The position numbers and the translations under genes are program-made. Below, piece by piece: positions 4,502 through 63,404 of a stretch of 64,000 bases of DNA. This stretch comes from Catajapyx aquilonaris. Taxonomy: Eukaryota. The stretch's first letter is position 1. Each line of letters starts with the position of its first letter. The stretch is taken from NCBI GenBank assembly GCA_000934665.2, contig JYFJ02000732.1, positions 1 through 64,000 of the forward strand, given 5' to 3'. Under the pieces are notes generated by a model. It was not told the origin of the DNA and ran no database searches. It saw nothing but the letters and a program-made list of their open reading frames with translations.

Positions 4502-6289
4502 TCATCCAGAACTTGTCATCAGCGGGTAGTTGTTGCTCAGGTATGTCGTCAGCGCTAAACGTATATCTTCAGCATTACCTCTTACTGCCCAATTGTTCCT
4601 CGCGTCTCGCACTGGAGGGTAATCTACTTCGACCGCTTGTAACTCTTTCAGCCATTCCTCATCAAAGAATTCTCCACGTTCCTCAACAAAGTTGTGAAGA
4701 AAACAGCATGCAGCAACCACTTTTGGTATGAACGTGTGGTGGATCTCCATCCGTTTGAACAACACCTTCCACCTCGCCTTGAGACGTCTCACCGTGAGGT
4801 CTACCACAGAGTGTCCTTGGTTCAGGTAAAAGTTGAAGGATTCCTCTTCAGGTGATAACTGCCCACGATCTGGATAGCCCTTGATGAGCCACGGAAGAAG
4901 AGGATGAACAGAAGCACCAATAAGGAAAAGAGGTATTTCTTCTCCCTCCACAGTGATTGGTCCCTGATTCAAATGAGAGAAAAAATTATGAACATCATGC
5001 TGCTGGCCATGCTTACACGTCTATCGTCACCTTGGGTAGTTTGTGAGCTGATTTGAACACATGTGATTCTCGAAGCACTCTTCCGTCATGGTCTGATCCA
5101 GGTGCCTGGCAGTTGATGTTGCGAATTCTATTGGGAAGAAAACAAAATTTGCTTAGTGCCTGTAGAATTGCAATAATAATATGACATGCAACATTTCTAC
5201 AATCTGCATTTTGTATGTACCTTAGTGTGTCATCCACAACCAGTTGAAGCACAACAGAGGCCCAATTCTGCTGGTTTATGAATTCACTGCGAGCATCTGT
5301 TGGCGGCATAATTGGTATGTGGGTGGTGTCGATGCAGCCCCATATCTGCGGAATGTTGCAGCGCTTCCTAAACCTGGCAGCAATTCTTTTGGCTTCCTCC
5401 TCGTGGGGTATGGACACAAAGGTCCGCAGCACTACATCGACCACCACTTTGCAAAAGAGTCTGAAGAATTTTCTTGCTGTTGTTCTACACACCCCAAATG
5501 CACTGGCCATTGCCTCCATATCACAACAGTTGGCAAGTTGGTACACAGCCATGGCCATCCTCTTCTCAAGGGACACTGGCTCACGCAAAGAGGCTTGACT
5601 TGGTGACATGTAAGGTCGCAAAAGGTCACAGAGCTCAAAAAAAGTCTCCCTTGTCATCCGGAAATTTGCAATCCAGTCCTTTTCTTGAAACTGTTGGCAG
5701 ACAGTCACCTCCCAAAACACACCCTCCCTCTTCTTCATCCATATCTGTCGCTCTCGGCGACAAGTTAAGGCCATAACAGGTCGAGGATCCATCAAATCCA
5801 TTGCTGCGGTTGTCCATTGCAATTGATGGGAAAGGAGCAGATTTAGCCTACGAGCTCTACGCCTCCTTAGCATGTCCATGAAACACCTGAGCTGGTCATT
5901 CTGTATCAGTTGCACACCAGCCACAACAGTGACTATGTACAGTTGCATGATGGCAAATATTGCCAGCAGTTCTTCATACGTCTGACTTGCAACAGGCACA
6001 GCTACTTGCTGAAATGATTCCGTATTAGTGACTGCTGCTGTGTCTACGATTCTTGCTGTTAACGTACCTGGCTGGCGCTTTCCTGCACAGCCACTGTTGG
6101 TTCATCCGCATCAGTGGCTGGCATGGCTACCACCGATTCTTCCGCTTCCATCTTAACCTCAGCAGGAGCGTCTTCGGTTACAGTTGATGCATCATCACAG
6201 TTAGAAAGCGCTTCCACTTTCACAGCCAGCCTCCAAGCATCCATAGCCTCTTCATTTTCCTCCTCCTTGGCAGTCACCTCTAGCGACAT
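4502..6289 (-). CDS. Cassette 3: acidic exon fused to Harbinger/HARBI1-like nuclease (probably catalytically dead)
   Basis: Exons 6289-6068, 6008-5221, 5127-5031, 4963-4502 with compatible phases; motifs NFRMTRETF, GCIDTTHIPI, GSDHD, RLKARW, ACCFLHN. Confidence 0.85.
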
Positions 6290-6631
6290 GTTCCTAGAAA
6301 ACAACCACTGATCAGAGGAACCATCAAATGAAAAGACTTTGGTGCAATGGCTGCACGTCCAGGAAGCAACCAAAATAATTCATTTAGTTGTACTCAAAAA
6401 TGACCTTGTCTTATTGTCGGGTGGGAAAAGCAGCAAAGACGTTGGGCAGCACCACGATTCAGAACAATATTACCTGCTGGACATTGGCCAGTGGCACTGG
6501 CTTAATACCTCACAACATGTTCCACTCACCCTGAGGAAGACGCACCAGTGTCCATCAGATGAATGGAGTCGAGGAAATCGGGAAAATACTTACAATTAAC
6601 CCGAAATCGACGAATTTCCAAGACTTTTCAT

Positions 6632-7010
6632 GGTCGCCATCTTTGAACCGGATGTTTGGGAGTGCGTTCCCACCGCCGGCCAGTCGCATGAGAACCGATG
6701 GAACAGAAGTAACGTCGCGGTTAAAATTCCCCGTGATATTCCCTTTTTAGAACCGGATGTTTGGGGTGCGTTCCTACTGCCGCCAGGCTCATTATTGCTA
6801 AGCATTATTAACAGAAGTAACGTCGCGGTTAAAATTCCCTTCTGAGAACCGGATGTTTGGGGTGCGTTCTCACCGCCGGCCAGTCGCATTGGAGATTGGA
6901 ACAGAAGTAGCATCGCGGATAAAATACCCACCTTTGAACCGGATGTTTGGGGTGCGTTCCCACTGCCGCCAGTCGCATGATAACAAAAGTAACGTCGCGG
7001 ATAAAATTCA
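6632..7010 (-). promoter_or_regulatory. Cassette promoter 3, with a four-copy tandem amplification of a 75-105 bp unit
   Basis: One GTCGCCATCTT, then GAACCGGATGTTTGGGRGTGCGTTC...GTCGCGG(T/A)TAAAAT units at about 6645, 6750, 6846 and 6936. Confidence 0.8.
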
Positions 7011-7390
7011 CTGCCGCCGCAAAGGAACAGTTATTTCAATTAACTAGTGTTACACGTTAAACTGCTAACCGCTATAGCAGGATCTTGTGACGAATTCGGG
7101 AAACAAATGATTAGCATTTAATTCCAGGCACTTGACTACGAGGTCAAGTAGCAGAAAGGTATGAATATACACGCAAGATTCACATGCAATTAGGATGTAA
7201 ACATATGTCACGGCGGTTAATTGAAAATAAAAATAATATATCAATGGAAAGATGTTCTAAACTTTTTCATGATGTCAAACACTGATGTTCGATAATTCCG
7301 CCTCAGCAAAAAATGATTTGTGTTAGGAAATTTTTATTGAAGTTTGTTACGATTGTAATGATCAGTTTGCAGACTTTGAGTATATCTTCA

Positions 7391-7876
7391 TCACAGCCTG
7401 TGGAGCAATCTTCTGTACTTTTCAACCTCTAGTCTCAATTTCTTGTTCTCTTCTTTGGCCTCCTTCAGCTCTTTCATGAGTTGCTCTCTGGTGCTTCCCC
7501 TCCTTTTCTTACACCCACTTACGACACTTGAAGAAGTACTAGTGATAGACTCCAGGATGTGGTTACAATCCACTGGGCTACGTCCTACATGTCTCAACAC
7601 TGCTTCACCGTCCTTCTGGTTTCGCCTACGTTTTCTTGCCCTCTCCTGCCATTCCTTCCTGGTCTTTCTCTTCTCCAGATCGGTCATGTCAGCTATCTTT
7701 TTCCTCGCAGTTTTCTTCCTTCGAGCATCTCTTCTCTTCACTTCCTCATATTTTTCAGAGTTTGCTTTTAATTTTTCTCTTGCACGTCTCATGCTCAACT
7801 TCCTCGTTTCTCTTCTCTTTGCCAATTCTTTTTCTGTTAATGTCTTGTGCTTTGTTCTTCTGATCTTGGCAGAGAC
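7391..7876 (-). CDS. Orphan terminal exon: basic K/R-rich helix plus coiled coil; candidate alternative last exon of cassette 4
   Basis: Acceptor tttcaag|GTC in phase 0, open to the stop at 7391; no promoter or acidic exon of its own. Confidence 0.55.
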   Translation of the reverse strand, partial: VSAKIRRTKHKTLTEKELAKRRETRKLSMRRAREKLKANSEKYEEVKRRDARRKKTARKKIADMTDLEKRKTRKEWQERARKRRRNQKDGEAVLRHVGRSPVDCNHILESITSTSSSVVSGCKKRRGSTREQLMKELKEAKEENKKLRLEVEKYRRLLHRL

Positions 7877-8275
7877 CTTGAAATTTAAAAAATACGAACT
7901 GTATCATGATTGTTTTCAACATGCTTATTAGTAGCTACAAGCTGGATGACTATCCCCATCAAAAATATACATGCAGTTAAGAGTACAAAGCTAATAAGTC
8001 TATGCAGAACTATGGCACAGTGTGGCACAGGGTAGTATAGACACTAAACAGCTAGAAGCTAACACTAACTTTTATTACGGTATATGAATTTAGCCTCTTT
8101 TTTTTGGCTCAATGACCCCTTTAAAAATCAACACAAATTTAGAGTGCAAGAGCCTAGAGCACTGCTACACATAAGCCTTACTAGTTATTTACTGTACTGT
8201 ACAAAAAGTAAGAAACGAATCCTAAAAGCTACAAAATTTAATAGTAACAAAAGCTTACATTTTACAATCGAAATT

Positions 8276-10959
8276 TTACTGTGGCTGGACCTGGACCATC
8301 TCAGACTCTATCGATTGGAAGTGATGGCGGTTTGCCTTTAAAAACATGAGCCTCTCAAAGTTGTTATCTGAGAGCGCAGCCGTCGATATATCTTTGCCAA
8401 TTGGGCAATGGGGCCCAACTGCAGCACTGGCCGGGATGGCAGTGTTGTATCTGATGAACAGATCTACGAAGATCTGCTCACCCAAAAAGGCTGCGTCAGT
8501 GAGGACCTCCTTTGAGCCAGCCTCCAACCAGGTCTTCACCATGTCCTGGGCTTTGGACTTGAGTGACCTGCGGCTGCTGCTCTTCACGGAACGAGTGACA
8601 CTGCTGAAGAAGTCTTCTTCTTCGTCCTCATCGCTGGTGCCGCTGCGGATGCCCTCCTCACTGCCACTGGTCTCCATCATGGCTCTCTCCACAGCATCCT
8701 CCATGCCCTTCTTGACCCTGGTGAGCTGGCTGTTGTCATACTGCTGCAGCCAGAAGAGGCGAAACCTGGGGTGGAAGGCAGCAGCCAGCTGGCACTCCTT
8801 GTCTTCCATGAGAGGCCCAAACCTCTTTGCGATTCCTGCCAGGATGACGTCTACCAGATGACTGCAGTACTGGAGGCGTTTCGACTTGACCTCCTTCAAC
8901 TTTATGACGGTGGCGGCTACAGTTGGCAGAAGGCTCCCGAGATAAGCCTGGTTCTCCTCTTGGATCTTATCCAAGGCCTTGGCAACACTGGACATTACCT
9001 GGGCGTACTCCTTCAGGAAGCCAATGTCACAATCAGTGAAGGTCTGCAACTGTAGCTGCATCATCACCCTATCCACATCTTCCTTCTTCTTCTCTAGCAT
9101 GTTGTTGAGGTGAACAACAGAATCGTACGTCGAGTTCCATCTGGTGCAGTTGGGAACCACCAGCCTTCTCTGCAACGCATCCAGAATGGTGTCTGCCGCC
9201 ACAGTGCTGCGACTCTGCAGGTTCCACAGCGCCTGTGCCTTGGACATGGCCATCCTGTAGGCTGACTTGAACGAAGCACAATGAAGAGCCTCATGGGTAT
9301 CCATGCTGGCTACCAAATTGAATGTGTGTGCTGCGCACCTCATGTGCACTGGCAGGTCCGGGCTGCTGGACTTCTCAAGTGCGGCATCAACAGAGATGAA
9401 ATCCACTTGGTCCACATCCTCCGAATCCTGTTCCATATCCTCGACTCCCTCAGGATCGGCAGCTGACTCCAGAATGTCTGGCATTGGCACAAGTTCAGTG
9501 CCAAAATGCGCAAACGTCTTCACCACGTTGCTGCCGTTGTCAGTGGTAGTTCTGGTCACCTTGTCCTGAAGGTGGAACTTGTGATGGTTGTCCACCATGG
9601 CCTGGGTGAGAACATCCGATGTAGGTTGTCCTCTGAGCGGAGAGCAAGCCAGGACGGCGTATTGTCTCTTGCGGGTCTTGGGGTCAATCCAGTGTGCCGC
9701 CATCTCAAAAAACCACCTGTTGTGGGCCGACCAACAGTCCGCGGTGGTTGCCACCCAAGAAACATCCTTCAGTGATCTGTAATCGAAAATTTTAAATGGT
9801 AAAGAGAAAGACTAACCAGACAAGTTTTGAGACAGAAAAGCAAAAATAAACATGTATAATAATCATATTAATTAATAATTTATAAAACGTACCTCATAAC
9901 ATATTCCTCCAGCTGTTTATGGTTGGCCGAGATCCTCTTTCCCAGTGTGAGGCGGGACATCGATGTCATGCCGGGGTTGAGTGTTTGGATGAGGCTGACA
10001 AAGGTGCGGGACTCCACTACATGCAGCGGTAGCATGTTGCAGACGAACAGGTCCACAATCTGTGTGTCCACCACAGACTGAAGGACGCCAGCGCCAGGCC
10101 GTAATTGGCCAAACGCCTCGCCAAGGGTGGACTGGCGTGGCTTCTTTGCAAGTTGTTGTGACAACTGGCTGCTGTTCTCGCTACTGGTACAGCTACCAGA
10201 TGATTTCCTGTGGCTGGGTCTCCCACGGGAAGAGCCGTCCTGAATCTTCTTCTGAAACAGGACGTCATGGGCTGGGTGTTTCCTTTTGATATGGGACTTC
10301 AGGTTGTAGAGGCTCGTCGCCTGTCCCTTTATGGTGATCTCCTTCGGCTGGCACAAGATGCAGCAGAAGTACAAGAGATTTGTGTTCTTCTGATCTCTTG
10401 ACTTCAGGACAAAGTAGTCCTCCAGGTGGGGCCACGGGTTCCCACTCTTCCCAGCTTGAGAAGCCGCAGTTGCTGCAGGCTCCTCAACAGACTTACAATT
10501 AGTTAGAACTACACTTAGCGGAAGCCACTAATAGCTTTCAAAGTAAACGCTAATAGCGTCACTAATTAGCGGAACCCTGCCCACCACTGCATTTTCCCCA
10601 ACTATTAGATATCGATGTTTTCAATAAAGTGCAGTGGCACCCACTTTGTGCCGTTAATTGAAAGGAAGTTTAATATGTTACTTCGCGTCTAGTTATTTCA
10701 TGCCATACATTGCCGACATAATTACCTCGCAGGACATTTCCTGAGTAAAGGCTACGGGGTGGCCTCCGCTGCCAGGTTTTGTTGCAACCGGCTCTTCATC
10801 TACAGCCTCCTCCTCCTTAATGCTTCCATTAATGATGTACGCATCATCATTGAAGCATGGCGGTGCGGTATCCTCCTTCACGGCCAATCTCCACGTTTCT
10901 TCCGTACAAATCATCTCCTCCTCAGCTTCCAACTCCTCCTTCTTGATTAGCAGATCCAT
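8276..10959 (-). CDS. Cassette 4: acidic exon fused to BED finger + hAT transposase-derived protein (ZBED-like)
   Basis: Exons 10959-10726, 10491-9893, 9776-8276 in frame; BED finger CILC...HIKRKH; TADCW, TDNGSN, CAAH, TRWNS. Confidence 0.85.
10500..10589 (-). mobile_element. Residual hAT transposon end in the intron before the BED exon
   Basis: CAGTGGTGGGCAGGGTTCCGCTAATTAG with CGCTA/TAGCG subterminal repeats; no clear partner TIR or TSD. Confidence 0.55.
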
Positions 10960-11977: not shown

Positions 11978-13499
11978 CTAGTCGATGTCTTCTGGCCTCA
12001 CTGGTTGGCTTAGCGGCACAACCGATTTCTTCTCAACATCTCGCGACAGTGCTTTCCTCATATCGTACGCATCTTCATCCGGATCGCCTGAATAATACTC
12101 CAAGACAGTTCGATACACAATGTAACCAAGTCTCTGGTACATGCTGATGGCGACCTTATTCGACACGCGGACAAAAAGATCCACAAAGTACGCCCTCTTC
12201 TTCTCAGAGACATCTTCCAGCCAGGCCATGAGTCTGGCAGCCAGTCCCAGGCGACGATACTCAGGAGCAACGGTCAGCGCGGTGACGTGTCCATGCCAGT
12301 TCTCGCCGTGCCCCTCCGATTTGCCCATTATGTAGCCCATTATCTCACCAGATGGAGATTCAGCCACCTGGAAATTGGCAACAATATTCATTGCCACGTT
12401 ATAAAAAGGTCAGTAGGAAGTGACAAGTCTACCAAAATATGAAACATCACGCAATCCAAGCGAAAATTATGAATGTGATCACAGGGAAAATTTCCTCAGA
12501 TGTTTCTTGTAATACTGTTTTTTTTAAAAAAAAGACACATTTTAAGCTGCGTTTACATGCAAGCGATTTGACGAGCGAAGTCTTCGCCGAGCGATAACAT
12601 CGCTGAGTAACCAATATCGTTTGAGGCGAAAATCATACTCTCACCTCAAACAATACTGGTTACTCGGGTTACTCAGCAATGTTTAGAATGTGTGCTTGTG
12701 ACAAGCTTTTTTTAAAATCAGCATTATATGAAGCACCTGAGGAAATTTGATTGGCGATGTTGCAGCGATGTAACAATCGTGGAAACTGTGAGCGATTTGA
12801 TTACGCTATGTCATCATCGAGTATAACCCGAGCAACCGATTGTTACCCTGATTGTTACATTTGCGATGTCATTGCGCTATCAAATCTCTCACATGTAAAC
12901 GCACCATTAAGATGAAAAATGCATTGAAATTTGGGGCCTGAATTAATACTTGTACTAAACCTAAATATTAGATTTTAATTTTTAATAACCCATACAAACA
13001 CAGAAAACTGATTGACCCCACAAGTAAAAAATACACTGTCGGCCAGTGGCCGTTTGGCCCACATTTTAAGGTGCGTTTACATGTGAGCGATTTGACGAGC
13101 AAAGTCGTCGCTGTGTGAAGTAACCAATATTGTGTGAGGTGAAATTAACAATCGATTTTCGCCTCCAACAGTACTGGTTACTTGGGTTACTTGGCAATGG
13201 CATCGCTCGTGATATCGCTCACATGTAAACGCCGCTTTCATGTTACGGACTGCTTCTATTCAAACTGGCTGCTACGTTAAACAACTGATGCAGCAATGAG
13301 TCCTCATCATGTCATTGTAAGTACATGAGTGCCTTGAAAGAGTTTAAAATAATCCCCTTGCAGGTACCTGAAAGTATTCAGGCCAATGAGCCAAGTACTG
13401 CAGGTAGAAGGAGAGTCCGTAGGTTTCAGTCAAGGGGTCCAGGTTCACATTGTTGAAGCGGAAGAGGTCGTCGCAAGTGAATGGCCTCAGGTTGGTCAT
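11978..13499 (-). CDS. NAA20: N-alpha-acetyltransferase 20 (NatB catalytic subunit), 173 aa
   Basis: Exons 13499-13368 and 12367-11978; MTNLRPFTCDDLFRFNNVNLDPLTETY, WHGHVTALTVAPEYRRLGLA, FVDLFVRVSN, EDAYDMRK. Confidence 0.97.
12546..12905. mobile_element. MITE (PIF/Harbinger-like ends) in the NAA20 intron
   Basis: TIR GCTGCGTTTACATG ... CATGTAAACGCACC, with TAA/TTA-type flanks. Confidence 0.7.
13070..13234. mobile_element. Second, shorter copy of the same MITE
   Basis: GGTGCGTTTACATGTGAGCGAT ... ATCGCTCACATGTAAACGC; internal similarity to 12546-12905. Confidence 0.7.
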
Positions 13500-47520: not shown

Positions 47521-49162
47521 TTATTTGACATGAGTCCACATATGTGCTTTTAAACGAGACTTCTGTCTAAACCTCTTCTGGCATACCTGGCAAAAAAGCA
47601 AACCGACATTTTTATGAGTCATAATGTGTTTCTTTAAATGGTCACTAGAAATAAAAGAAGCCCGACAAACTGGACAAGAAAGAGGACTTGTTTCCATGTG
47701 GCTCAGCATATGCGTGTTTAAGTCAGATGCAAGTGGAAACTTTTCCCGGCATGTCTGGCACGTAAACTTCCTCTCTTCTAAATGAGTCATGAAATGTTTC
47801 TTAAAAAAATAACTCGAAGTAAATGTCATTGCACACACATTACAAACAACAGTCATCTGTCCTGTGGGAGTTGATATACGCTTTTGCACAGGAGATGCAG
47901 GTGGTGAATTTACAGCACAAAATTGGCAAGCAAATATTTTCTCTCCCTCGTGATTCACCAGGTATACTTCAAAACTTGCTGACCAAATATACCTCTTCTG
48001 GCAATCTTCACATTTGAATGTCTTCTCTATCTCATGCTTTCCATTCTTCTCGTGCACTATCTGAAAAAAGTACAAGATCACTTGGTTACCCACTGAAATT
48101 AAAGTGTAATTGGCCCATCAGTGATCCTGATGAGTGACCTTGTGTGGTCCAGATGATGATCTTGGAAGGTCAGACCTCACAAATTAACAGACCAACAGGA
48201 TAATCAAGAGCCTTACAACCTATTTACTAACTTCTCTTAAGACAAAAGCCTTCTTAGACAGGTGTGATTGATTGACAGGTGTGAACCCAATTTATTAACA
48301 TTCAATTAAATTGTATTTTGTGTGCAAACATGTTAGGGAGCAAAAGTAATCATGTGTGTGGCACCACTCCCGTCAACCTGGACTTCCAACCACACTTACA
48401 TTAGTGTGTTAAGAGGTTTTCAGAGAATAAAAATTACCCCAAAATCATTACCTCTATTTCTGAGCTATCTCCATGCGTTCCCTTTGGCTTTCTGCAACCA
48501 TCTAACTGGTCTGGAGCTTCTTCTTTTGTGTTTGGCTGAACAATGGTCGGGAGCTGAACGTTATTTCTAATCGTGGTGCCATCCCTCCGAGACTCCACTT
48601 TAAATCCCTGCACCAGCTAAAAGAAAAATTCAGCACTTATTAGGTTTGCAACAAGAAAAAGCCACAACTGCAATGTCAAATGAATAACGGAGGGTAAGCC
48701 TCCAACCAGCCATATTTATGCTCCTTCTGCCTATAGTCACGCTATTGACGTGCGGCCATCGCATAAGTGCAAAACACACAGGTGTCATGTAAGTCCTTCC
48801 AAAGTACACACAATTTCCCATGTGAGTCATCAGCTTTAAAGTTTTGGGCTTTAAAGTTGCAAACTTGCAATTTTCTTCAAGTGGCCAAATGCTATTCGCT
48901 CACTGATGTGCTCCCAGATACGCACCATGCCTGGTGATGGGTCATGTCCATCTTTAGCGTCATCTGGTAAAACCATCCGGTCCTCTTCCGCCTCTTTTTT
49001 GATCACGTCCGCAAGGAGCTCCTCAATGATGGTCGACGTCTCATCGAAGCATTCAGGAGCCTCTTCCTTCATGGCCACTCTCCACGTCTCCTCCGTGGTT
49101 ATCACATCCTCCCCATCATCTTGTTCCTCCACCTCACTCTTGATCTTCAGAGTTAAAGACAT
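47521..49162 (-). CDS. Cassette 18: acidic exon + divergent C2H2 protein (4 intact + 2 degenerate fingers)
   Basis: Exons 49162-48926, probable 48616-48452 (55 open codons, phase 0/0), 48060-47521. Confidence 0.75.
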
Positions 49163-49369
49163 GATCCTGAAGAATCAAAAGTGCATATGTTACATTGGGG
49201 GGGGGCCGATTTGTCCGGGATCAACCGACCTACAGTTGCTACAGCTTCCAAATGACCCAGACTCACCCCGAGGCGGGTTCCCACCCAGGGGCGGCCCCTG
49301 GGAACTAGGAGGAAGCACGTTAAGATCAATTATTCTCTGGAAATCCGATGTAAAGTGACGATCAGATGT

Positions 49370-49436
49370 CGGCCATATTGTCCACGGTTGCTGGGGTGCG
49401 TTCCCATCCCCGCGCAAAGGACCGTTCCTTTGTCTA
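49370..49436 (-). promoter_or_regulatory. Cassette promoter 18
   Basis: CGGCCATATTG variant, GGGTGCGTTCC, CCGTTCCTTTGTC. Confidence 0.7.
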
Positions 49437-50675
49437 AGCAGTTTTTATCGATTTTATGATAACTGCGATGAAAGAGGGACGGAAAATCGCACATCGTTTA
49501 TCGCACTCATAAATCCCCCCCAAAAAATTTCTCTAAAATGCCGATTGTCCCACTGGTGAATAAAACAACATGTATTGAAATCGCGGAGTATTTTATGTAT
49601 CACAAAATTCACCATTTACAGGTGTATGGGTTACACAATTGGGCTTTGTTGCTGCTGGGGAAAGCATAATGCTATTCGCGAGTAACAGCTTGGAGTAACA
49701 GTTCTCAGCAGCTGGTAACAGCTATTTCTCATAGTTTTTATGCTATTCACTAGTATTAGTACGTGAATCTTAGTTAAGAGCCAATGAGGCACTATTATTA
49801 TTATTTAAAATGTTCCCAATTTGTTCATTACAATGACACACCTGACAAGGAAATGGCTTCTCTTTCTTGTGCATCCTGCGACTCTGCATTTTCACTTTGC
49901 CAATTTACCTATATTGACGTCTTACCAGCATCAGATTAACCAAGGAAAAATACTGAAGTGTAGCTCCCATCCAGGTAAACTATAAACAAGGTACAAAATG
50001 AAACACCAGTGATGATTTCAGATGTCTTTTTTTTTTCATTTCCCTTCGCTCCATGAAGGTTTCAACAAATAACTGAAAACAGCCAAACAAGAGCTGCAAT
50101 GTTGGCTTAGACATTGCAGAACACATCATGTTAATTATCAAAAAGATTTTAACAGGGCATCAATAAATTTTAAGTGAAATTGCTAACAAGATCGGATGAT
50201 ATTGGAACAGTTTTTCAACATTCAGTTACTGACAATGAGTTGTGACTTTCGAAAGTGATCATGAACAATCCCAATTGAATTGGTGGTGAAGGTCTGACCA
50301 GTGTCTGACTGCCAATTTGAGCATGCAGATGGTCATCCAGATTTGAAAAAAAGTGACCATTACATGTCTCACCATTTCAGAAGAAAAAAAAATGAGCAGG
50401 CAAAAAGCCTAACGTTAGAGACAAATAAAACGGGATTGGAGGTGGAGGATTTGGTATAGGCCTACAAAATCTGATGCCATGGCTTGCCAAATGCTTCAAC
50501 TGACATGGTAATTGCATGAAGTAAGAGCTACATGTCTGTTCCATCCTGTGGTTATAAAGTTGATTGCATCAAAAATTGTTCACAGCCAAATGGTACTTAC
50601 ACTTGGAAACAATACAATACAATACAATACTTACACTTGGAATGTAGTGCGAACCCCGCTTCATTGAGCTATAAA

Positions 50676-51617
50676 TTATTTATGTTCTGCATGAGTTGCC
50701 ATATGCCTCTTTAAATTACTTGCCTGCGTATAATCTTTATGGCACATTTGGCAAACGAATGGCTTTTCTCCTGTATGAGTTATGATATGTTTTTTCAAAT
50801 GAGAACTCGTGCTGAACTTTTTTTCACACTCATGACACTGGAATGGCTTTTCACCTGTGTGGGTCACCATGTGCGTTTTCAAAGCAGACCCCTGCCGAAA
50901 GGTTTTCAGGCACAACTGACACGCAAATGACTTCTCTCCCGTGTGAGTCATTCTGTGTGTTTTTAAAGTACCAGCATGAGAAAATGTCTTCTGGCACACA
51001 TCACAAGCAAATGGTCTTTCCCCTGTGTGACATCTGATATGCTCCCTTAAATGAGAAGCCTGATAAAACCTTTTTGGGCACACATTGCATGTAAATGGTT
51101 CTTCACCTGTATGAAACAGCATGTGCTTTTTCAAGAAACGTGTCGTTCTAAACTCTTTCTGACACACATTACAAAATAACGAATTCTTTCCTTCACTTGA
51201 CCCACTCCTTCGTGGTGCGACTCCTTCTGACAGACTCCCATCATCTTCACTTTCTCGCACCACCTGGAAGACACATTAGGTGACTGACACTTGGATAACC
51301 AAATGGACTAACATATAATTACTTGAAAGTGCATAAATTGCCTGTTGCTACCCTACCTGATGAGCAGTGTCTTGATATGTTTCTGCTAGTGGATCATCCA
51401 TGTCGCCGGTGTCTTCTGGCATGATGGACATGATCTCTTCCTCTGATTCCTCCACCTTAACCTCCCTCGTCCCATCTTCTGTGTCAGGTGAAGACTCGTC
51501 AGAAGGACTTTCCTGCTTCAACTCCTCCTCCTCCTCCTCCTTTTCTGCCTTCACGTTGACTACTTCACCTTTCACCTCCTCCGGCACCTCCTCCTCGATC
51601 CTTAGCACCGACGACAT
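50676..51617 (-). CDS. Cassette 19: acidic exon + C2H2 protein (6 fingers)
   Basis: Exons 51617-51357 and 51263-50676. Confidence 0.9.
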
Positions 51618-52412: not shown

Positions 52413-53520
52413 TTATGCATGTCCTGCATGAGTCAACATATGTCTCTTTAAATTACATGCCTGACTAAACTCCTTATGGCACAATCGGCAAACAAATGGC
52501 TTTTCTCCCGTATGAGTTACCATGTGTGATTTCAAATAAGAAGCCAAGCTGAACTTTTTCTCACACACATGACACTCAAATAGCTTTTCACCAGTGCCAG
52601 TGTGGGTGACCATGTGAACTTTCAAATTGGAAGCCTGCCGAAAGGTTTTCAAGCACACCTGACAAGCAAATGACTTCTCTCCTGTGTGAGTCATTCTGTG
52701 AGTTTTTAAATTACATGCATGAGTAAACTTCTTCTCGCACACATCACACGCAAATGGTCTTTCGCCTGTGTGACACTTCATATGCTCCTTTAAATGTGAT
52801 GCCCGATAAAACTTTTTTTGGCACAGTTGGCATCCAAATGGCATGTTTCCAGTGTGCGTCATCATATGCTCCTTCAATTTAGCCGATTCAATAAACCTTT
52901 TCTCACAGAGTTGACAAGAAAAGGGCTTTTCTCCCGTGTGAATTAGAAGGTGAGTTTTTAAACCAGTTGAGCGAGTAAACCTCTTCTGGCACAAATGACA
53001 ACTAAACGGCTTTTCTCCCGTATGAACCGTAACATGTTTTTTCAAGTCACCTCTTAATCTAAACTTTTTCTGACACACGCTGCAGGTAAATGGTTTTTCG
53101 CCCGTGTGAATGAGCTTGTGGTTTTTCAAAACACCTGCTGCACTGAACTCTTTCTCACACTCCTGACAATAAAATGATTTTTTTCCTTCACTTGATCCAT
53201 GACTTTGTGGCGGGACTCCTTCTGTCGCACTCCCATCATCTTCACTTCCTTGCACCACCTGGAAGATGCATTTTATTAGTACTAGGTTAGCCAGGTCTCA
53301 TGCGTTTCCTGTTGCCAACCTGACGGGCGTCTTCTGCCAATGGGTCACGTGTGTTTTCAGTGGCTTCCGGCATGACGGACATCTCTTCCTCCAGCTTAAC
53401 CTCCCTGGTCCCATCTTCAGAGCTAGACTCATCAGAGCCCGAAGGAGTTTCCTGCTTCATCTCCACCTTCCACTCTTCCTTCACGTTGACTACTTCATGT
53501 CCAACCTTCTCCTCCTCCAT
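52413..53520 (-). CDS. Cassette 20: acidic exon + C2H2 protein (9 fingers)
   Basis: Exons 53520-53320 and 53258-52413. Confidence 0.9.
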
Positions 53521-53667
53521 GGTCCTAAAGAAGAATTTGCTCATCAAGGTCATGTGTACAACATCGCAAGGGAACCCTTGCCTTCCTATGTTTGGCAGCC
53601 GCGTCTCTCCAACTGAGGATCAGACCCTTAGGAAAAACCACTGGAAAAACAGAGTCAATCAGATGCA

Positions 53668-53746
53668 GCAGCCATCTTGGATAATATATCAGCTGGGGTG
53701 CGTTCCTACCAGCGACTACAGAAACAGATGGACCGTTCCTTGTCCA
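53668..53746 (-). promoter_or_regulatory. Cassette promoter 20
   Basis: GCAGCCATCTTGG, GGGTGCGTTCC, CCGTTCCTTGTCC. Confidence 0.75.
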
Positions 53747-54487
53747 GTCATTTCGATGAGATTAACCGCTAATCATATAGCTCCTGCACTAGCCGTTATT
53801 GCTATCGCATGCTGCTTTTCACACTAATTTATTAAGAACTTGTGCCCTGCCTGCCCGGCTAAGGGACAAGAAAGGCCTGGCTTTCTCCTCCCAGCGTACC
53901 CCCAAAAGGACAAGACCACAGTTCTGACTACCAACCGCTTTTAATCCTCATCTGCATACTACACATCATACGTACATACCGCCTTTGGCCAACAGTCGGG
54001 CAGTGCCCCTTGCTACAAACACACTCTTCAAAAAACACAGGCCAGTCTCTCCTTCGACCACACCAACCACACCCTTGTCTGGCTCACACTTTGCTCTACC
54101 TCAGCTGGTCCTTACTCTGCCCTTCTTCCTGTGACCCGTCTCCCCCAAGCCTCTGTTAGCTGGCTCCCCTATCAGTCCCTGCTGACCAGATGTCCCTGAC
54201 CAAATTATAGACGTCTGAAGCACTTTTAAAAGGAAGTAATAAATATTATTATTCTGGCAGTTACTGGTGTTGTTTTGCAATTTTCTTCATACAGCCTGTC
54301 GGTTGTGGGTGCAAAATGATGTCAAAATCCAGGTCAGCGATCTTGCAAACAATGGAAGCAACCTTTACAATTCATTTCCATGGTATAGTTTACAGGGTAA
54401 CATATTTTATGGTGACGTTATTTCCCACTCACACTACTGTGCGGCGGGACTTTGATGGCAAGAACTGGGTCAGTTCCTAAAACTAAG

Positions 54488-55954
54488 CTATTTATCAGCA
54501 ATTTTATTCAATACTCCCAACAACTGACCCATGAGGTTCTTATTATCCTCATGGGCTTCCCTGAGCATGCGGAGGGTTTCTTGATGCTGCTGCTGCTGCT
54601 GCTGTAGCGCTTCTCTTAGCACCGCCACAATTTCATCCTTCACCCTCTCTGCAGCACTCCCCTTGAATCTTTTCCTCTTCACCACAGGTGGTAGCGCTTC
54701 TCTTTGCACCGCCACAATGTCGTCCTTCACCCTCTCTGCAGCACTCCCCTTGAATCTTTTCCTCTTCACCACAGGTGTTCCAAGTCCTGAAAGGATTTCC
54801 TTTATGTCGCATGACCACAATTCGGAGGCTATTGACACAGACACACCTAGGTATAGCACAGATGCTGACGAATCCTGAGTCATACCAGATGAGTTCCTGC
54901 TGGAGCTCCGCACACTGTCGTCAGAGCAGCCACTGGTGCTGGAATGGCTCCCTGTGGAGAATACAAATGCATCAGTTGTAGCTGTTACAACTAATCGGTC
55001 GTCTGCTGGGAGTGCTCCAACAGCTCCAGTGCGCAGTGGGCCACTTTGGATTAGAACTAGCTCCACTTTTAGGTGCAGCAAACGGGGCGCAAGGTTACCT
55101 CCAGCTCCCAGGATGGTGTCCTGGATGGCTAGTGGTGTGACATTCGGCCTGTCGCCCATAAGCTCCTCCATCTCATCTTCATATGGACATGTTCTCCTGC
55201 CATTTCCACTTTTGGAGTTGTGGTCCTTCACTCGCTTGTATGCACATTGCAGGGTTTTCCACCGACCCATCACTTGGGCAGTGGAATACGCAACACCTGC
55301 AGTGGCTTTGACTGAGTCTATCACCATCTGCCATAGGTGTTTTTTTTTTGTATCTTGGACTTGACCACTTCTCCCCCACCTCCTTCCACGCTGCGATGAG
55401 GGCGAGTGTGGCACGGCGACCCCAAACTGACACGGAAAACAGCCATTAGATACTTTCAACACCGTCGTTACAACAACTCCTCTGGTTCTCATAATACTGC
55501 AACATGGCACGTAATGGGACAGTGTCAACTCCATTGCGGTCACCAGATTTTCCTTACCTTCAGCATGTGTGCTACTCCCTTGTACTCCCTCCTATTGCCT
55601 CTTTCACTGCATGCACAGTTCTTTCATGTTGACAGTCCTACCTGTTCCTGTCACAGCCTCACTTGGGCAACTGCCTCCTGTCTGTGGCACATTCTCCGGT
55701 CCCCTGTGTCCTGTCTCTGGCACATTGTCTTCACTCGTATTCCTGTTGCCAACCTGACGGGCGTCTTCTGCCAATGGGTCACGTGTGTTTTCAGTGGCTT
55801 CCCGCATGACGGACATCTCTTCCTCCAGCTTAACCTCCCTGGTCCCATCTTCATAGCCAGACTCATCAGAGCCCGAAGGAGTTTCCTGCTTCATCTCCAC
55901 CTTCCACTCTTCCTTCACGTTGACTACTTCATGTCCAACATTCTCCTCCGACAT
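54488..55954 (-). CDS. Cassette 21: acidic exon + trihelix/Myb-SANT-like domain + coiled coil (one frameshift in an A10 run; possible pseudogene)
   Basis: Exon 55954-55642 (phase 1) joins the acceptor at 55426: WGRRATLALIAAW...YKKK/HLWQ...RWKTL..AYKRVKDHNSKSGN...PYEDEM. Confidence 0.65.
54604..54777. repeat. 87-bp coding tandem duplication
   Basis: PVVKRKRFKGSAAERVKD(D/E)IVAV(Q/L)REAL occurs twice. Confidence 0.9.
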
Positions 55955-56105
55955 GGTCCTAAAGAAGAATTTGCTCATCAAGGTCATGTTTACAACAACA
56001 TCGCAAGGGAACCCTTGCCTTCCAATGTTTGGCAGCTGCGTCTCTCCAACTGAGGATCAGACCCTCAGGAAAAACCACTGGAAAAAACAGAGTCAATCAG
56101 ATGCA

Positions 56106-56181
56106 GCGGCCATCTTGGATAATCAGCTGGGGTGCGTTCCTACCAGCGACTCCAGAAACAGATGGACCGTTCCTTTGTCCA
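56106..56181 (-). promoter_or_regulatory. Cassette promoter 21
   Basis: Near-identical to promoter 20. Confidence 0.75.
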
Positions 56182-56933
56182 GTCATTTCGATGAGATAAA
56201 CCGCTAATCATACCGCTCCTGCACTAGCCGTTATTGCTATCGCATGCTGCTTTTCACACTAATTAAATGTTGAACTCAAGGTGGTTAATTAATTTTAATT
56301 TAAGTGCGGCTCGGGTCAGGTCCAAATATTCCACGAATCTGTTTGACCATGTAACAGTACATTTACATGCAAGTACTTTTATTTTCTATAAATTTATATT
56401 TTTTGATAAGTTTGTGACACAGAATGCGACCTCCACTTTCGGAATGTCTGCCCCGAAATAAAAACATACTGGCCCCTACACTCTTATAAAAATTCCTCAG
56501 CATTGGTAAGGTATGACCCTCTTTGCGCATTATTCTTAAAGTCATGAAAGCAAATTAAAAGTGTTCCTCTTGGCGTGACCTGGATGACAAGTGTTTGTGC
56601 TGCAGCGGAAAATGAAGAGAGCGGATGTCTTATCTGGTAACAAATATCAGCACATAAACTGGGTATGGCTTTTTATAGGAATGACGATATTTTAAAAAGA
56701 GAGTATAATGTATCTCAGTAATGAATTAGGTGCGTTTATTAATCTTTAATCAGGTCCATGTACCAACTGGATCACTGCGAAGTAAAATTACATGACCGCA
56801 TGCACCACTTGTGCGACTTGGAATTACTTTTTTTCATACATACACACATACATCACATAGCTGTACTTATATAGAATATTATTGTTGTTACCATCATTGT
56901 CTTTCCCAGATGTTACACTTGCTTAAGACCTTC

Positions 56934-58011: not shown

Positions 58012-58179
58012 GGCCCTGCAAATAATAATAATTGCTCATCACGCCTTTCCCTTCCTTTCGCCATTGACTCACCCTGTAGCTGCAGCTCCTTTCCAGGCGA
58101 TCCAGGATCAGCTCCAGGCAAACCCGGCGGCCCAAGCGCAATTATTCAACCCGCAAAAATGAAATCCGCCCAACGGACA

Positions 58180-58228
58180 GGCGGCCATCTTTGATATGCA
58201 AATGACTGGGTCGCATTCCCATCGCCGC
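58180..58228 (-). promoter_or_regulatory. Cassette promoter 22
   Basis: GGCGGCCATCTTTG, ATGCAAAT, GGGTCGCATTCCC variant. Confidence 0.7.
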
Positions 58229-59177: not shown

Positions 59178-60888
59178 TCAGATCCTTTTGTTGTAATTGA
59201 TAAATAGCATCATTTTTGCCTTTTCTGAGCTCAGTCGATTCCTGTTCTCGGTAAGAGCACGGCCAGCTTTAGAAAATACACTCTTGCATGGCACCGATGT
59301 GCCCTGAACACACAGATGATTTCTGGCTAATTTGGAGAGCACAGGGTATGCGTCTCCACGTGACTGCCACCATTGCACAGGATCCCCAGTAGTCTCCAGG
59401 TAAGGTGCGTCCAGATATCTGCCAAAATAATGAACGCATTAAAAATCTCAGCCCATCCATCCGCATGGTTTGCATAAACTCACCGTTGCAGTTCAAAGAT
59501 TGCTCGAGCCTGGGGAGTTCCAGTTGCTTGAGCATCGCTTTTTTTCTTTTCTAAGTCTGACAATAGAAATAGTGTAGCTCCCTGACCAGGTGAGGAAGTT
59601 CTAGGTGGTTCTGATTCGGTGACTTGTTGTATTCCCTTCAGATCATCTTCCACCATCAGCATTGCTCGTATTTGGCGCTTCATCTTGTCACTTTGACGAT
59701 AGTCTCGGAAGGGCAGCAGTTTGAAACGTGGATCTAGAACCGTTGCAACTCCCAGAGTGGAATCATATTCGATATCTTTCAGCATGTCTGCCTCGCTTGC
59801 CTTCTCATCAATGCGGTTGAGCACCTTTTCTGTCAGATCTGAATACGACTTTTGACTGAACTTATCAATAAGGTCTCTGAGACCATATGTGTAGGGGATA
59901 AGTAGTGACCCAGACACATAGTCTTCCCTGCCCAAGGCTGCTGCTAATTCCTCCCAAGGCTTTATAATCGCCACTAGCTGCCTACAAGTCTCAAGCTCCT
60001 CGTTGGTGAGCATTGGAAAATGATCACCCAGCACTGCCAGTGTTGTCCGAATAGCTTCCTCCTGCTCAATGAATGTCTTCAGCATGTAAAATACGGAGGT
60101 CCACTGTGCCTCGCATGACAATTTCAGCCGCTTTGGAGTACCATTAATTTCCTGCATCTCAGTCAGTTTCTCACCAGCAATATTGTTACACCGAAAGTGA
60201 TTCACAATTTCTTTAACGTTGTCTACGAGGGGTTTGGCAACCTCAAGCCCACAGTTCATAATCATGTTGAGCTTATGTGCAAAGCATCCAATCTGTTTCC
60301 ACTGATTTATATTGCCTATTTCTAGCATATCAGCAGAATTTTTGGTCACTAACCAACCAACCTTTGAATCTAAATCCCAGTCGTACCTCACACGTGCCAT
60401 CTCAGTGGCCATGTGCTCAGGAGTGTTACGACCGGTCATAACGATGCATTCCAGCAGAGCATGTTCCAAGACAAAGCCTTGCGTGATGCCATGAGCTGTC
60501 ACTGTCATAAAGCTTTCGCCTTTGCTTGAATTCCAGAAATCCGACGTCAAGCAGATTGTGCCCACTCCTGCCAGCCTTTGCTTTACTTCTTGCACACACG
60601 AGTGATACAAGGAGGGAAGGAAGGTCTTGGAAAAATACTTCTTGCTTGGAAGCTTGTAACTGGGATTGAGTGCCTGAACGAATCTTATAAACCCACTTGC
60701 TTCAACCAGTGACAACGGCAAGAAATGGTCAATGCACATTTGCATGAGAGCAGCGTTCGCGTTTTCCTGGCCAACCTCTGTGATTCGCTTTGGAATGAAA
60801 AAAGTGCTGGGTTGCTGCGTTGTTGCCATTGATCTCAAGCTAGCCTCACTTCCAGATGACGGATCACCAGCAGAGACTGATCCTTCAG
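59178..60888 (-). CDS. hAT transposase-derived exons (ZBED1/ZBED4-like body and dimerisation domain), probably catalytically dead
   Basis: Exons 60888-59484 and 59418-59178; LTSDFW, CFAHKLN, LDPRFK, WW...YP.LS.LA...L...TSVP. Confidence 0.85.
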
Positions 60889-61081
60889 CTGCAATGAATC
60901 ATGTTAATTTTAAGACACAGTGTCAGACAAATATTTTAAGAATGTTTCAATGGGCACAGACGTGAATTTCATGTTGTGGCTGTTTCTGGTCTCCCACTAC
61001 GCAATGTGGATGTTGGTAATAAATCCCTCTAAGGAAATGGTTGAACGACTAAACATTTGATGACCTCATTTATTAACATTA

Positions 61082-63404
61082 TTACTTGTTCTTACAAGCA
61101 GTGTTATAGTGGCACTTATAATTGCATTTGAGATTTCTCGAGCGACATTTACATTTCTTGTCACCGCAGTACTTTTTGCAAGTGCATCTTACGGCTCCCA
61201 GCCTGCTATCTGTATATAAAGCTGATGGCGACTGACGCGGTACAGAACTGGAAGGAACTTCATTCAGATTGATAACATCAATATCAGCAGTTGTGAACTC
61301 ATTCCGAGCATACAGCCTATCCAAAATGCCTTCCTTGGTGCCCAGCTGGTAGAACCCAGATTCATTAACACCTACAACAACTGCTAAAACATTGCTGGGA
61401 GCCAAACATTCTTGATTTGTTTTGGGCGCTATAACCACTACGCTTCTCCCTACATCGACAGCGGGGAGTGCTGAGTCGGACAGAGAAATCGCTTGCTCAG
61501 TTTGTTTTTTCTGACTGGATCTTGCATTTTTATGGTTACTTTTCATATTATCTTTATTCAAACACTGGTTGCAAATGATTTTCTGTCCAAACCCCTCATT
61601 TACTTCCGTGTATTTTCCGCAAAACACATGAACATACCGATCACAAACAAAACACTTGTTACCAGAACACTCGTTCTCACAAACTGCACAGTACACATTA
61701 TTTTCAGGTTCATCTTGAAGCATAGTGTTGGCTCCATCCTCATCTCTTCTGCTCTGAATGTTGTCAGGTTCTTCGTCGTCATCAGATTGTACTTTATTGC
61801 TGCCAATTTGTGAGATAAAGAGCTGTTCTAATTCCTCTTCAGTTTCTATCCGAGTGTAGACATCTTTTTGAAAGGTAGAATCTGCAAGTCCCATCCTTTT
61901 CGTAATTCCAAATGTAGCTCGATAAGGACTCATCTTAATTCCTGCATGAAAAGCTTGGTTCTTCTTGCTCTGAATAAAACGCAGTCCGTCTGACCATCTC
62001 TGTGATGTGTTGTCAGCCATCCACGCTCCAAGCATGTCTCTCACATCTTGGTTTGATACATCAACCGATCCCTGGCTTTGGGAATCTCGGGGCTTTCCGT
62101 GCACGAGCTTCAATCCTGGCCACATTTCGGCCAAATTCTTAATCACTTTGTGTGCAAATTCTCGTCCGTTATTGCTCTGAAGTATAAACGGAGCACCAAA
62201 GATACAAAAGATGTCCATTACTTGATAAGCCACTTCCTCAGCAGTTTGAGTTTTCAATGGACGAAGAACTGTAAATTGAGTTATATGATCTTGATAATTC
62301 AAAATGAAACAATATTCCCCATCTCGTTCTGACTGCATGTTGATCAGATCTATTTGACATCGAGAATTCATGTCATTCGAAAGAATTGGCTGAACTACCA
62401 ATCTCCGTTTGGCTGCTTTCTTCTTTAACTGACATTTCTTGCAAAGAGATATATAAAGTTCAATAACTTTGCGAGTAACATTGGAATACTTTGTCTTCAA
62501 TTCAGCTTCCATGACTGAAATGAATAAGGAAAAAAAACTAGTAAAACTTCTGTTGTGCACGTAAGGTTCTGTCATGTTTTCTCTCTCTGTCATTCATGCA
62601 CAGAGCAAACAATTTTATGCATTTGAATATTTTATATTTTGCCTTTTTAGGCCAAAAATATTTTGCTGTCAGCAAAAAATTTATTTTTTAATTACATTTT
62701 CATGCATGTATACTAGCACAAAAGGTGACTGTTTCCAGTAGATTATAACTAATTCTAAAATAGTTGCGGACAAAAAAATTTTAAACTGTGGTAAACCTAA
62801 TATTCTGTGAGCATAAAAGTCAGCACGTAGTGGCCTACAACATATTGCAGCATGGAACCAGACTTGCTAAAATGCTGAACCTGTCAAAAGGCGCTGGCTA
62901 CACAAAAAATTTCATTTCCATCCGCAAAGTTGCCCAAAATGGCTGAATAGACTTACAAATCCATAAAAAATCCATTAAAAATCATTAATACAGGTGTTAT
63001 TTACTTACTTCTGCTCTTTTTGTGTCCAAGGCTAAGATGCACAGATTCCAATATATCAAAAAGTTCATCACTGGTACAGAAGTAACGCATGTCCGAACCA
63101 CTTTTACGTGCACCACCGTCAACGAGCTTTTCTGTATCTCCAATTTTCACCACACCGTATCTTTTAATACGTCGGTACTGCTTCGATGTCAAATGCTGAT
63201 TGTTCCGTCGTAATTCATGAGCTTCTTTCACTTCACATAAAATTGTTTGGTAACGGTCAGCATCAAGCATAATGCATCTATCATTACTTGATTCCAACAA
63301 CTCTGTCAGTTTCTCATAAAAAATTTCCTTCACACTTTTGACAGCAGCCGTGGCTACGGACGTCCTACTCTGCTCACATTCATTTGCCAAATTCAGACAG
63401 CTGA
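61082..63404 (-). CDS. KRBA2/SCAND3-like integrase-derived exons with H2C2 finger, rve-like core and Cys-rich C-terminus
   Basis: Exons 63404-63009 and 62514-61082; H...GH...C..CQ, RCQIDL, FGAPFILQSNNGREF, SQSQGSV. Confidence 0.85.

Follow-up and report, generated by a model that had tools for sequence, protein, structure and literature searches.

Fusions between the KRAB domain and transposases arise in tetrapod ZNF genes by splicing, with an acceptor that usually lies just upstream of the transposase open reading frame (ORF), according to the cited sections of a preprint (bioRxiv 10.1101/2020.05.07.082677). We analyzed a window of 64,000 nucleotides, the whole stretch of DNA considered here, from Catajapyx aquilonaris (NCBI GenBank assembly GCA_000934665.2, contig JYFJ02000732.1, positions 1 to 64,000), in which C2H2 zinc-finger genes of two exons each form a tandem cluster on the minus strand. 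Among these genes stand a Harbinger transposase ORF, a BED-finger hAT transposase ORF (hAT1), a Myb/SANT-like ORF and a THAP ORF, each downstream of the acidic N-terminal exon typical of the cluster, together with a second hAT ORF (hAT2) and an integrase ORF. As in the KRABINER-type fusions (Cosby et al., sections cited), a transposase ORF is found behind an N-terminal effector exon and the DNA-binding part is retained. Unlike in those fusions, the exon is acidic and not of the KRAB type, the transposase bodies are preserved whole, the zinc-finger exon is apparently missing altogether and not subject to alternative splicing, and the splicing is here a prediction; the survey of Cosby et al., in its cited part, covered tetrapods. 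Both hAT1 and Harbinger fit domesticated transposases and, like the Myb/SANT-like and THAP ORFs, are candidate host-transposase fusions that carry a non-KRAB effector exon. A narrow literature search, supplements excluded, found no description of transposase capture in fish zinc-finger genes.

The FiNZ genes pair a Glu-rich N-terminal exon with a zinc-finger exon, occur in tandem clusters and are specific to cyprinids (Wells et al. 2023, PMC10547256, sections cited). The zinc-finger genes of the window resemble them, and KRAB zinc-finger genes, in exon architecture only, the comparison with FiNZ being one with the published description. With HARBI1 and NAIF1/MSANTD, in the cited part of PMC9392472, the window shares a Harbinger ORF and a Myb/SANT-like ORF that lack transposon termini; the differences from HARBI1 are a triad that reads Asp-Ala-Asp, an identity of at most 47% to any relative, a distance of 48 kb between the Harbinger and Myb ORFs, and the position of each behind an exon of the zinc-finger family. 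hAT1 has the BED finger, hAT core and C-terminal region of ZBED genes and of uncharacterized BED-type proteins from poeciliids and Austrofundulus (P0130-P0134, P0150). The latter proteins are 62-64% identical to hAT1, share with it a Glu-to-Gly change and a 3-residue deletion, and form its sister group in a tree, although the N-terminal extension of P0133 has no detectable likeness to the acidic exon of the window and the branch support is moderate.

Acidic exons and the ORFs that follow them

The GC content of the window is 41-47%. When its 40 stop-to-stop ORFs of at least 150 amino acids were scanned against Pfam, 15 proved to be C2H2 zinc-finger arrays, all on the minus strand, and a tblastn search that used the peptides of three acidic exons of the window as queries located 20 acidic exons, likewise all on the minus strand. 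The usual gene of the cluster opens with a short Glu-rich exon that supplies the ATG and ends in a phase-0 GT donor, followed by an intron of a few tens of bases to ~1 kb and a single zinc-finger exon. Downstream DNA lies within the window for 19 of the 20 acidic exons; a zinc-finger ORF follows in 15 cases, and the Harbinger, BED-hAT1, Myb/SANT-like or THAP ORF in the other four, where the ORF is on the same strand and no zinc-finger exon occurs before the next gene. The three acidic exons tested against Pfam had no match to KRAB (E ≤ 5). An initial annotation of the transposase and integrase ORFs had missed this position behind the N-terminal exon of the zinc-finger family, which is the feature most relevant to mechanism, and its list of four transposable-element (TE)-type ORFs lacked at least two more, the Myb/SANT-like ORF at 54488-55591 and the THAP ORF at 20233-20673.

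All four exceptional acidic exons end in a phase-0 GT donor like their paralogues, and each of the four ORFs offers a candidate phase-0 AG, which a pyrimidine-rich tract precedes in three. Each candidate acceptor lies close to the first position that can be aligned with relatives or with the Pfam profile. Neither BED-hAT1 nor THAP supplies an ATG at that start of its relatives or of the profile, and the Harbinger and integrase frames also lack one where their relatives begin. For BED-hAT1 the stop-to-stop ORF begins 169 bp below the acidic-exon match and the proposed intron measures 234 nt, for Myb/SANT the corresponding values are 154 bp and 327 nt, and in the Harbinger case the acidic-exon ORF and the transposase ORF overlap. 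We consider exon capture, as read from this arrangement, to be the most likely mechanism for the hAT1, Harbinger, Myb/SANT and THAP ORFs. Each of the four would occupy the place of the zinc-finger exon and be spliced to the acidic exon, and in the predicted host-transposase fusion proteins DNA binding would fall to the domains that the transposase itself uses for it. The acidic N-terminal exon would serve as the effector, so that the fusion, if expressed, might act as a repressor or other regulator without cutting DNA.

Several observations weigh against this reading. The proposed acceptors are read from the sequence, that of Harbinger implies an intron of 59 nt, and the tract before Myb is weak; a gene every ~3 kb puts any insertion near an acidic exon; and the Myb match, at profile positions 24-89, leaves out the initial third of the Pfam domain. 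We rate the chance that the ORFs are spliced to the acidic exon at the predicted junctions as slightly below even, and a composite explanation, in which the ORFs of the window fall into three classes, as evenly poised. The more far-reaching proposal, that a single type of acidic effector exon captured at least four TE-derived DNA-binding modules within 64 kb, namely a Harbinger transposase, a Harbinger-type Myb/SANT protein, a BED-hAT transposase and a THAP module, each replacing a zinc-finger exon, is doubtful and is advanced tentatively. In sequencing run X5, a second sample, one contig stops at 48060 and another at 51261, both close to the 5' end of a zinc-finger exon and with 109 and 65 letters left unplaced, which raises the suspicion that the run may be RNA. 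Run X5 gives no cover at 48670-50003, 53339-56673 (the Myb region) or 59342-60008, and we base no conclusion on these gaps.

In Pfam the Myb/SANT-like ORF matched Myb_DNA-bind_4 (E = 8.7e-9, 36.1 bits, cut-off 27), and its acidic exon is a near-duplicate of the exon at 53296-53517, donor included. The THAP ORF reached E = 7.4e-11 (43.1 bits, cut-off 23.9). The C-terminal part of the Myb/SANT-like ORF contains a tandem duplication of ~26 residues (VVKRKRFKGSAAERVKD...). Around this gene, at 53335-56264, the source-sample contigs come in short pieces with a few differences and indels of 1-3 bases (for example, 3 bases missing at 54961), and the region may be heterozygous or recently duplicated. 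Coordinates are collected in Table 1.

Table 1. Positions of the transposon-type ORFs, their exons and introns, and the associated acidic exons in the window; a slash marks a splice junction.
Feature	Position	Strand	Details
Acidic exon and Myb/SANT-like ORF	55754-55954 and 54488-55591	-	Same frame, two stops between; candidate acceptor 55427
Acidic exon and THAP ORF	21606-21947 and 20233-20673	-	Candidate acceptor CCCACAG/ at 20611, phase 0; ~1 kb apart
Acidic N-terminal exon before hAT1	10726..10959	-	ATG 10959; donor GAG/GTAATT after 10726, phase 0
hAT1 BED-finger exon	9893..10491	-	Candidate acceptor TGTAAG/ at 10492, phase 0; no ATG of its own
hAT1 intron, BED to core	9892-9777		116 nt; GT-AG
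hAT1 core exon	8276..9776	-	TADCW and TTDNGSN kept; SAAVGPHCP replaces Glu motif
hAT1 core stop-to-stop ORF	8276-9811	-	
Acidic N-terminal exon before Harbinger	6068..6289	-	ATG at 6289; donor CAG/GTACGT after 6068, phase 0
Harbinger exon 1	5221..6008	-	Candidate acceptor TTTCAG/ at 6009, phase 0; donor AAG/GTACAT; first Asp in GCIDTTH
Harbinger exon 2	5031..5127	-	INCQAPGSDHD...LPK; between the 93-nt and 67-nt introns
Harbinger exon 3	4502..4963	-	LIGASVHP (second Asp to Ala), VVDLTVRRLKARW (Glu to Asp); stop at 4502
Harbinger introns	5220-5128 and 5030-4964	-	93 nt and 67 nt; GT-AG
Harbinger stop-to-stop ORFs	5013-6101 and 4502-5020	-	
Probable Ginger2-type DNA transposon copy	60962..63511	-	2,550 bp; 48-nt inverted repeats at both ends
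Integrase inverted-repeat arms	60962-61009 and 63464-63511		48 nt; 81% complementary
Integrase exon 1	63009..63483	-	His-His half of H2C2 finger; donor A/GTAAGT at 63008
Integrase intron	63008-62515		494 nt; GT-AG; splits H2C2 finger
Integrase exon 2	61082..62514	-	Cys-Cys half of finger; core D82/N141/D178; SCAND3-type zinc finger; Cys-rich end
Integrase stop-to-stop ORFs	61082-62593 and 63001-63483	-	
hAT2 core exon	59484..60898	-	LTSDFW kept; VTKNS at second Asp; first ATG 60829
hAT2 intron	59483-59419		65 nt; CG/GTGAGT...TTGGCAG/
hAT2 C-terminal dimerisation exon	59178..59418	-	VPCKSVFS; Dimer_Tnp_hAT E = 2.1e-20
hAT2 stop-to-stop ORFs	59480-60898 and 59178-59438	-	
Possible end of BED-like finger	63798..63998	-	Runs off the window; upstream of the Ginger2 copy; weak zf-BED match, E = 0.18

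Catalytic residues and ancestry of hAT1 and Harbinger

The initial annotation had presented the integrase, hAT1, hAT2 and Harbinger ORFs as open frames with intact splice sites, drawn from three superfamilies and deprived of their DDE catalytic residues. We found all four open, all on the minus strand, and can confirm the three superfamilies. The seven altered motifs that it had listed stand in their places (IGASVHP, VVDLTVR, SAAVGPHCP, VTKNS, VPCKSVFS, SNNGREF and SVDVSN), and removal of the five internal introns, all GT-AG, brings the frames back into line with their relatives. The residue equivalences that it had drawn agree with our alignments to prototype foamy virus (PFV) integrase and to hAT and Harbinger relatives, and with AlphaFold topology. 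The loss of a complete catalytic triad is likewise confirmed for all four ORFs, with the qualification that the first Asp is retained in every one, hAT1 lacking the Glu only and the integrase, Harbinger and hAT2 each lacking two of the three residues. Transposon termini are present at the integrase as 48-nt inverted repeats, and none above chance were detected at hAT1, Harbinger, Myb or hAT2 (absent, or reached by 60-90 of 200 shuffles).

hAT1 retains TTADCW and TTTDNG and has Gly in place of Glu, at a position where 18 aligned relatives have Glu (14), Gly (3) or Asp (1). A hidden frameshift at this motif was considered, and the other two frames do not contain it. The Glu-to-Gly change and a 3-residue deletion just after the motif are shared by hAT1 with the Xiphophorus and Poeciliopsis proteins. 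Among 66 matches the closest relatives are 62-71% identical (lobster 71%, toadfish and poeciliids 62-66%), other matches come from beetles, a firefly, hagfish and flatworms, and the patchy spread is that of a horizontally moving hAT family. A maximum-likelihood tree placed hAT1 as sister (ultrafast bootstrap 87, Shimodaira-Hasegawa-like approximate likelihood-ratio test 84) to Austrofundulus plus poeciliids (95/92; poeciliids 100/100), a group whose internal order follows the species, with a hAT1 branch of 0.39 changes per column compared with 0.076 for the lobster protein. The BED exon is 55% identical over 217 residues to the Poeciliopsis isoform P0133, with zf-BED reaching only E = 0.04 in Pfam, and the hAT1 protein had no match among solved structures (E ≤ 10) and none to a hAT family in Pfam (E ≤ 5). 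No inverted match was found between 7950-8290 and 10500-10700 of the kind that, with an 8-bp target duplication, marks an active hAT element. At 10% neutral divergence the core would be free of stops by chance with a probability of 0.003.

From these data hAT1 is likely to be a domesticated transposase, and purifying selection without catalysis is suggested because the private branch is long and yet some 700 codons remain open, with both introns canonical. Counting against this are the presence of the Glu-to-Gly change in Thalassophryne (toadfish) as well, in another part of the tree, which makes it recurrent, and the moderate support (87/84) for hAT1 with the cyprinodontiform clade. Against the predicted junction stands the homology of the BED exon to P0133, which reaches ~9 residues upstream of the proposed hAT1 acceptor. 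P0133 carries a 177-residue Glu-rich N-terminal extension, to which the acidic exon of hAT1 had no significant similarity (E = 0.12), and a conserved fusion is therefore not demonstrated. Directly downstream of hAT1, at 7391-7903 (minus strand), we noted an open Lys/Arg-rich, coiled-coil-like ORF of 170 amino acids that matches no Pfam family. A tandem array with units of ~90-105 bp lies at 6637-7012, between hAT1 and the Harbinger-associated acidic exon (4 copies by find_repeats, 2.5 by TRF with 80% matches).

The Harbinger ORF keeps the first Asp (D in 12 of 18 aligned relatives), the Asp of LGD has become Ala (D in 14 of the 18) and the Glu of VE has become Asp (E in 14 of the 18). Reading through intron 1 would introduce an insertion relative to all 18 relatives. 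Exon 3 matched DDE_Tnp_4 in Pfam (E = 5.2e-12, 46.1 bits, cut-off 24.8), and the exon 1 ORF reached only 17.5 bits. A conserved 'HD' is also intact in the protein, which raised the question of which Asp is the catalytic one. The AlphaFold model of the relative P0193 (predicted local distance difference test score 88.6) has the first Asp within strand 1, 'HD' at the beginning of the helix that comes after strand 3, the Asp of LGD immediately behind strand 4, and the Glu in the long helix 314-340; because this order is RNase-H-like, the LGD Asp is, on the model, the second catalytic Asp. We take the Glu helix to be of the IS4/IS5 type, R-x3-E-x6-K. Foldseek with the P0193 model returned no match at E ≤ 0.001, its weak rows being other DDE transposases and integrases.

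The best Harbinger relatives are 43-47% identical (4,157 matches among 1.84 billion representatives). Several aligned relatives also lack triad residues, and non-catalytic descendants are therefore common in this branch of Harbinger; HARBI1 keeps the DDE triad. The best inverted match at the termini, of 8 nt, was equaled in 77 of 200 shuffles. A PIF/Harbinger transposon would have repeats of 25-50 bp, a 3-bp duplication and a Myb-like ORF inside the element, and here the only Myb-like ORF of the window lies 48 kb away. The acidic exon at 6068-6289 forms a direct repeat with the start of the hAT1 acidic exon. We judge the odds to be somewhat in favor of a domesticated Harbinger ORF. Just downstream of its stop, at 4110-4484 (minus strand), lies a fragment that resembles the start of an acidic exon (78% to 10912-10947); no zinc-finger ORF belonging to it occurs ahead of the following acidic exon (2998-3276).

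The integrase, hAT2 and neighboring repeats

In the cited part of Bao et al. 2010 (PMC2836005), Ginger2 transposons, with lengths such as 2,751-2,885 bp, are described with ~50-180-bp repeats, TGTNR termini, 4-bp duplications at an AT-rich target site, and an H2C2 finger followed by a DDE core. The element around the integrase of the window is like Ginger2/TDD in its H2C2 finger and integrase core, repeats of ~50 nt, a TGTNR end, GT-AG introns and a length, 2.55 kb, that comes close; it is unlike them in its D-N-D triad and in having no recognizable 4-bp duplication. The inverted repeats scored higher than any of 200 shuffles in a flank scan. The outer ends read (T)GTGAATTT, with a 5' end, TGTGA, that fits TGTNR and a 3' end that reads ...TTCAC and then G in place of A. 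The flanks read ...ACAA and TCTG..., and the target duplication may have decayed.

Aligned to PFV integrase (E = 1.4e-10, phmmer against solved structures), the protein pairs idli with idyi, SNNG with SDQG and GSVDVSN with GKVERKN. Its finger consists of H-x3-H in exon 1 and C-x2-C in exon 2. The first Asp, D82, is invariant in an alignment with 21 relatives (37-56% identity), the window included, and at N141 and D178 all 21 relatives have Asp and Glu. The stop falls at the same place as in 19 full-length relatives. Among 247 matches the closest were insect proteins labeled 'SCAND3-like/KRBA2-like' at 52-54% identity, the best a beetle protein at 54%, and there was no close vertebrate orthologue; frog proteins of the family are among the matches listed. 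According to the sections cited of Llorens et al. 2012 (PMC3575427), no Ginger2 transposon has been found in vertebrates. Among the 128 columns with a conservation of at least 90% in the other sequences, the integrase deviates at 21, whereas its six closest relatives deviate at 0-2 of 126-128, and the deviations run over the whole length, from residue 64 to 492.

DNA contigs of the probable source sample were aligned to the window at 85% likeness, and their depths are not copy numbers. A single contig spans 56235-64000. Up to six further contigs at least 85% alike fall on the integrase at 61276-61852 (peak 61304), and a 398-nt contig on 62045-62377 has 41 differences and 5 gaps relative to the integrase of the window. 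The sister contigs agree with the family alignment at codons 438 and 440, where they specify Ser and Phe; the window reads Ile and Val there. Diverged relatives of the Ginger2 copy thus exist elsewhere in the reads of the same genome. Contigs of run X5 cover 446 nt of the integrase and 353 nt of hAT2 with no difference.

We consider it probable that the integrase is the ORF of a Ginger2-type transposon copy, and it is most likely a non-autonomous relic. We favor a disabled transposon copy over a host gene because the repeats are kept, sister sequences occur in the reads and the 21 changes in 128 columns extend along the whole length. Two considerations pull the other way. With ~10% decay per repeat arm, both integrase ORFs would remain free of stops by chance with a probability of only ~5e-5, indels aside, and inverted repeats do not exclude co-option. 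Either the repeat arms were never identical, or the frame is under some constraint. The mammalian genes KRBA2 and SCAND3/ZBED9 belong to the same integrase lineage, including the SCAND3-type zinc finger; unlike them, the integrase of the window has no KRAB or SCAN exon and no hAT fusion, and it does have inverted repeats and sister copies. It should be filed as a disabled Ginger2-type copy and not as a gene of the KRBA2/SCAND3 type.

hAT2 begins 64 bp below the end of the Ginger2 copy. A profile alignment of hAT2 to the hAT1 family (hhalign, probability 97.6, E = 2.6e-12) pairs TTADCW with LTSDFW and TTTDNG with LVTKNS, which places Lys at the second Asp, and the Glu position also reads Lys in a weak pairing of SAaVeRLFs with SVPCKSVFS (probability 27). 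Identity between hAT2 and the hAT1 family is 22-28%. The R-W motif has lost its Arg, CEAQWTS as against CPTRWNS in Hermes, a match of only E = 0.66 that we take together with the profile alignment. No termini above chance were found in the intervals searched. In the bins at 59342-60675 the depth (37.3 and 23.6) is exactly that of the spanning contig, and no second contig at least 85% alike aligns there; this is a weak hint of a single copy, since contigs can attest that a sequence is there but not that it is lacking. The atlas features, which serve as a lead only, indicate ZBED1-like hAT clusters that are mostly chordate. The BED-like fragment at the edge of the window had no BLAST match to the hAT proteins compared; it may be the first exon of hAT2, in which case the Ginger2 copy may lie within the first intron of hAT2. 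Whether hAT2 is domesticated we leave undecided.

Further repeats and frames occur in the window. Between the Ginger2 copy and the BED-like fragment, at 63673-63722, a dispersed repeat is indicated by 10-16 further source-sample contigs that align with differences. A repeat of very high depth in all three runs lies at 44001-44250, with a summed word depth of 68,988 compared with ~35 for unique DNA (run X1). The loose-end consensus just upstream of it contains GGTTCGATCC, which we take to be a tRNA B-box and which suggests a tRNA-derived short interspersed nuclear element; ARAGORN reported no tRNA gene in 43700-44500. An intron-less ORF at 11981-12409 (minus strand) has a GNAT acetyltransferase domain (E = 2.7e-17), presumably resembles the C-terminal two thirds of N-alpha-acetyltransferase 20, and may be a processed retrocopy.

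Alternative explanations and implications

An account in which every one of the ORFs is an ordinary decaying transposon copy in a gene-dense cluster, open through youth or chance and near an acidic exon by coincidence, seems unlikely to us. It would fit the other repeats of the cluster (44001-44250, 63673-63722, the 90-bp tandem array and the retrocopy-like GNAT ORF), the patchy distribution of hAT1 relatives over lobster, beetles, fishes and flatworms that horizontally moving hAT elements have, catalytic changes of the kind that decay yields, and a gene density, one every ~3 kb, at which proximity comes easily. It does not sit well with the lack of detectable termini at hAT1, Harbinger, Myb and hAT2, or with a private hAT1 branch of 0.39 that leads to an intact two-intron frame. 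Nor is the Harbinger ORF a recent copy from a sampled family, since a search of 1.84 billion representatives brought up no sequence more than 47% identical to it. Moreover, all four of the TE-type ORFs that lie behind acidic exons are on the gene strand, in the place of the zinc-finger exon and open to phase-0 joining, for which the rough chance is ~3% per case (same strand within 170 bp), an estimate that applies to three cases only, the THAP exon being 1 kb away.

The initial annotation had gone to the opposite conclusion, that all four of its ORFs are independently domesticated host genes that serve in DNA binding or scaffolding after the loss of cutting. In its favor, each of the four frames runs open for 470-730 codons and has canonical introns, freedom from stops is unlikely under neutral decay, and the integrase keeps 107 of the 128 conserved columns together with the H2C2 and SCAND3-type fingers. 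SETMAR is a domesticated gene that retains repeat relics, and inverted repeats can thus persist in such genes. KRBA2 and SCAND3 provide a precedent for the co-option of a Ginger2 integrase (PMC3575427, sections cited). The integrase nevertheless tells against a uniform origin: it has kept both repeats and has diverged sisters in the same reads, its changes are spread over the protein and not confined to the active site, its first exon matches no KRAB, SCAN or other Pfam family (E ≤ 5), and the best of its 247 matches is the beetle protein. We therefore regard four domestications as quite improbable and keep the proposal in part, with hAT1 reasonably supported by its long branch, open frame, lack of detected termini and fish-gene sister, Harbinger plausible, hAT2 undecided and the integrase set apart as a transposon copy.

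A single chimeric gene of the SCAND3/ZBED9 type, composed of the integrase and hAT2, is very improbable indeed: the two share a strand, lie only 184 bp apart between the integrase stop and the hAT2 ORF, include a Znf_SCAND3 Pfam match and follow the integrase-then-hAT order of SCAND3 (PMC3575427, sections cited), but the integrase has its own stop exactly where relatives end and the 3' inverted repeat of the Ginger2 copy (60962-61009) intervenes, which rules out the fusion, and in addition Pfam does not assign hAT2 to the Buster type, a SCAN domain was not detected, and the only two longer fused forms of the integrase found are retroelement polyproteins.

The preferred reading is thus exon capture for hAT1, Harbinger, Myb/SANT and THAP beside a disabled Ginger2 copy. 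Documented transposase capture by zinc-finger genes concerns tetrapod KRAB genes, and a different, acidic effector exon would extend its range. If a single type of acidic exon did capture at least four modules, the cluster would be a transposase-capture hotspot that lies outside the tetrapods and involves no KRAB, in which both Harbinger proteins may have been co-domesticated under the same effector domain. Transposase capture would then be general to fast-evolving zinc-finger families, and the window would offer a compact locus for the comparison of four kinds of captured DNA-binding module.

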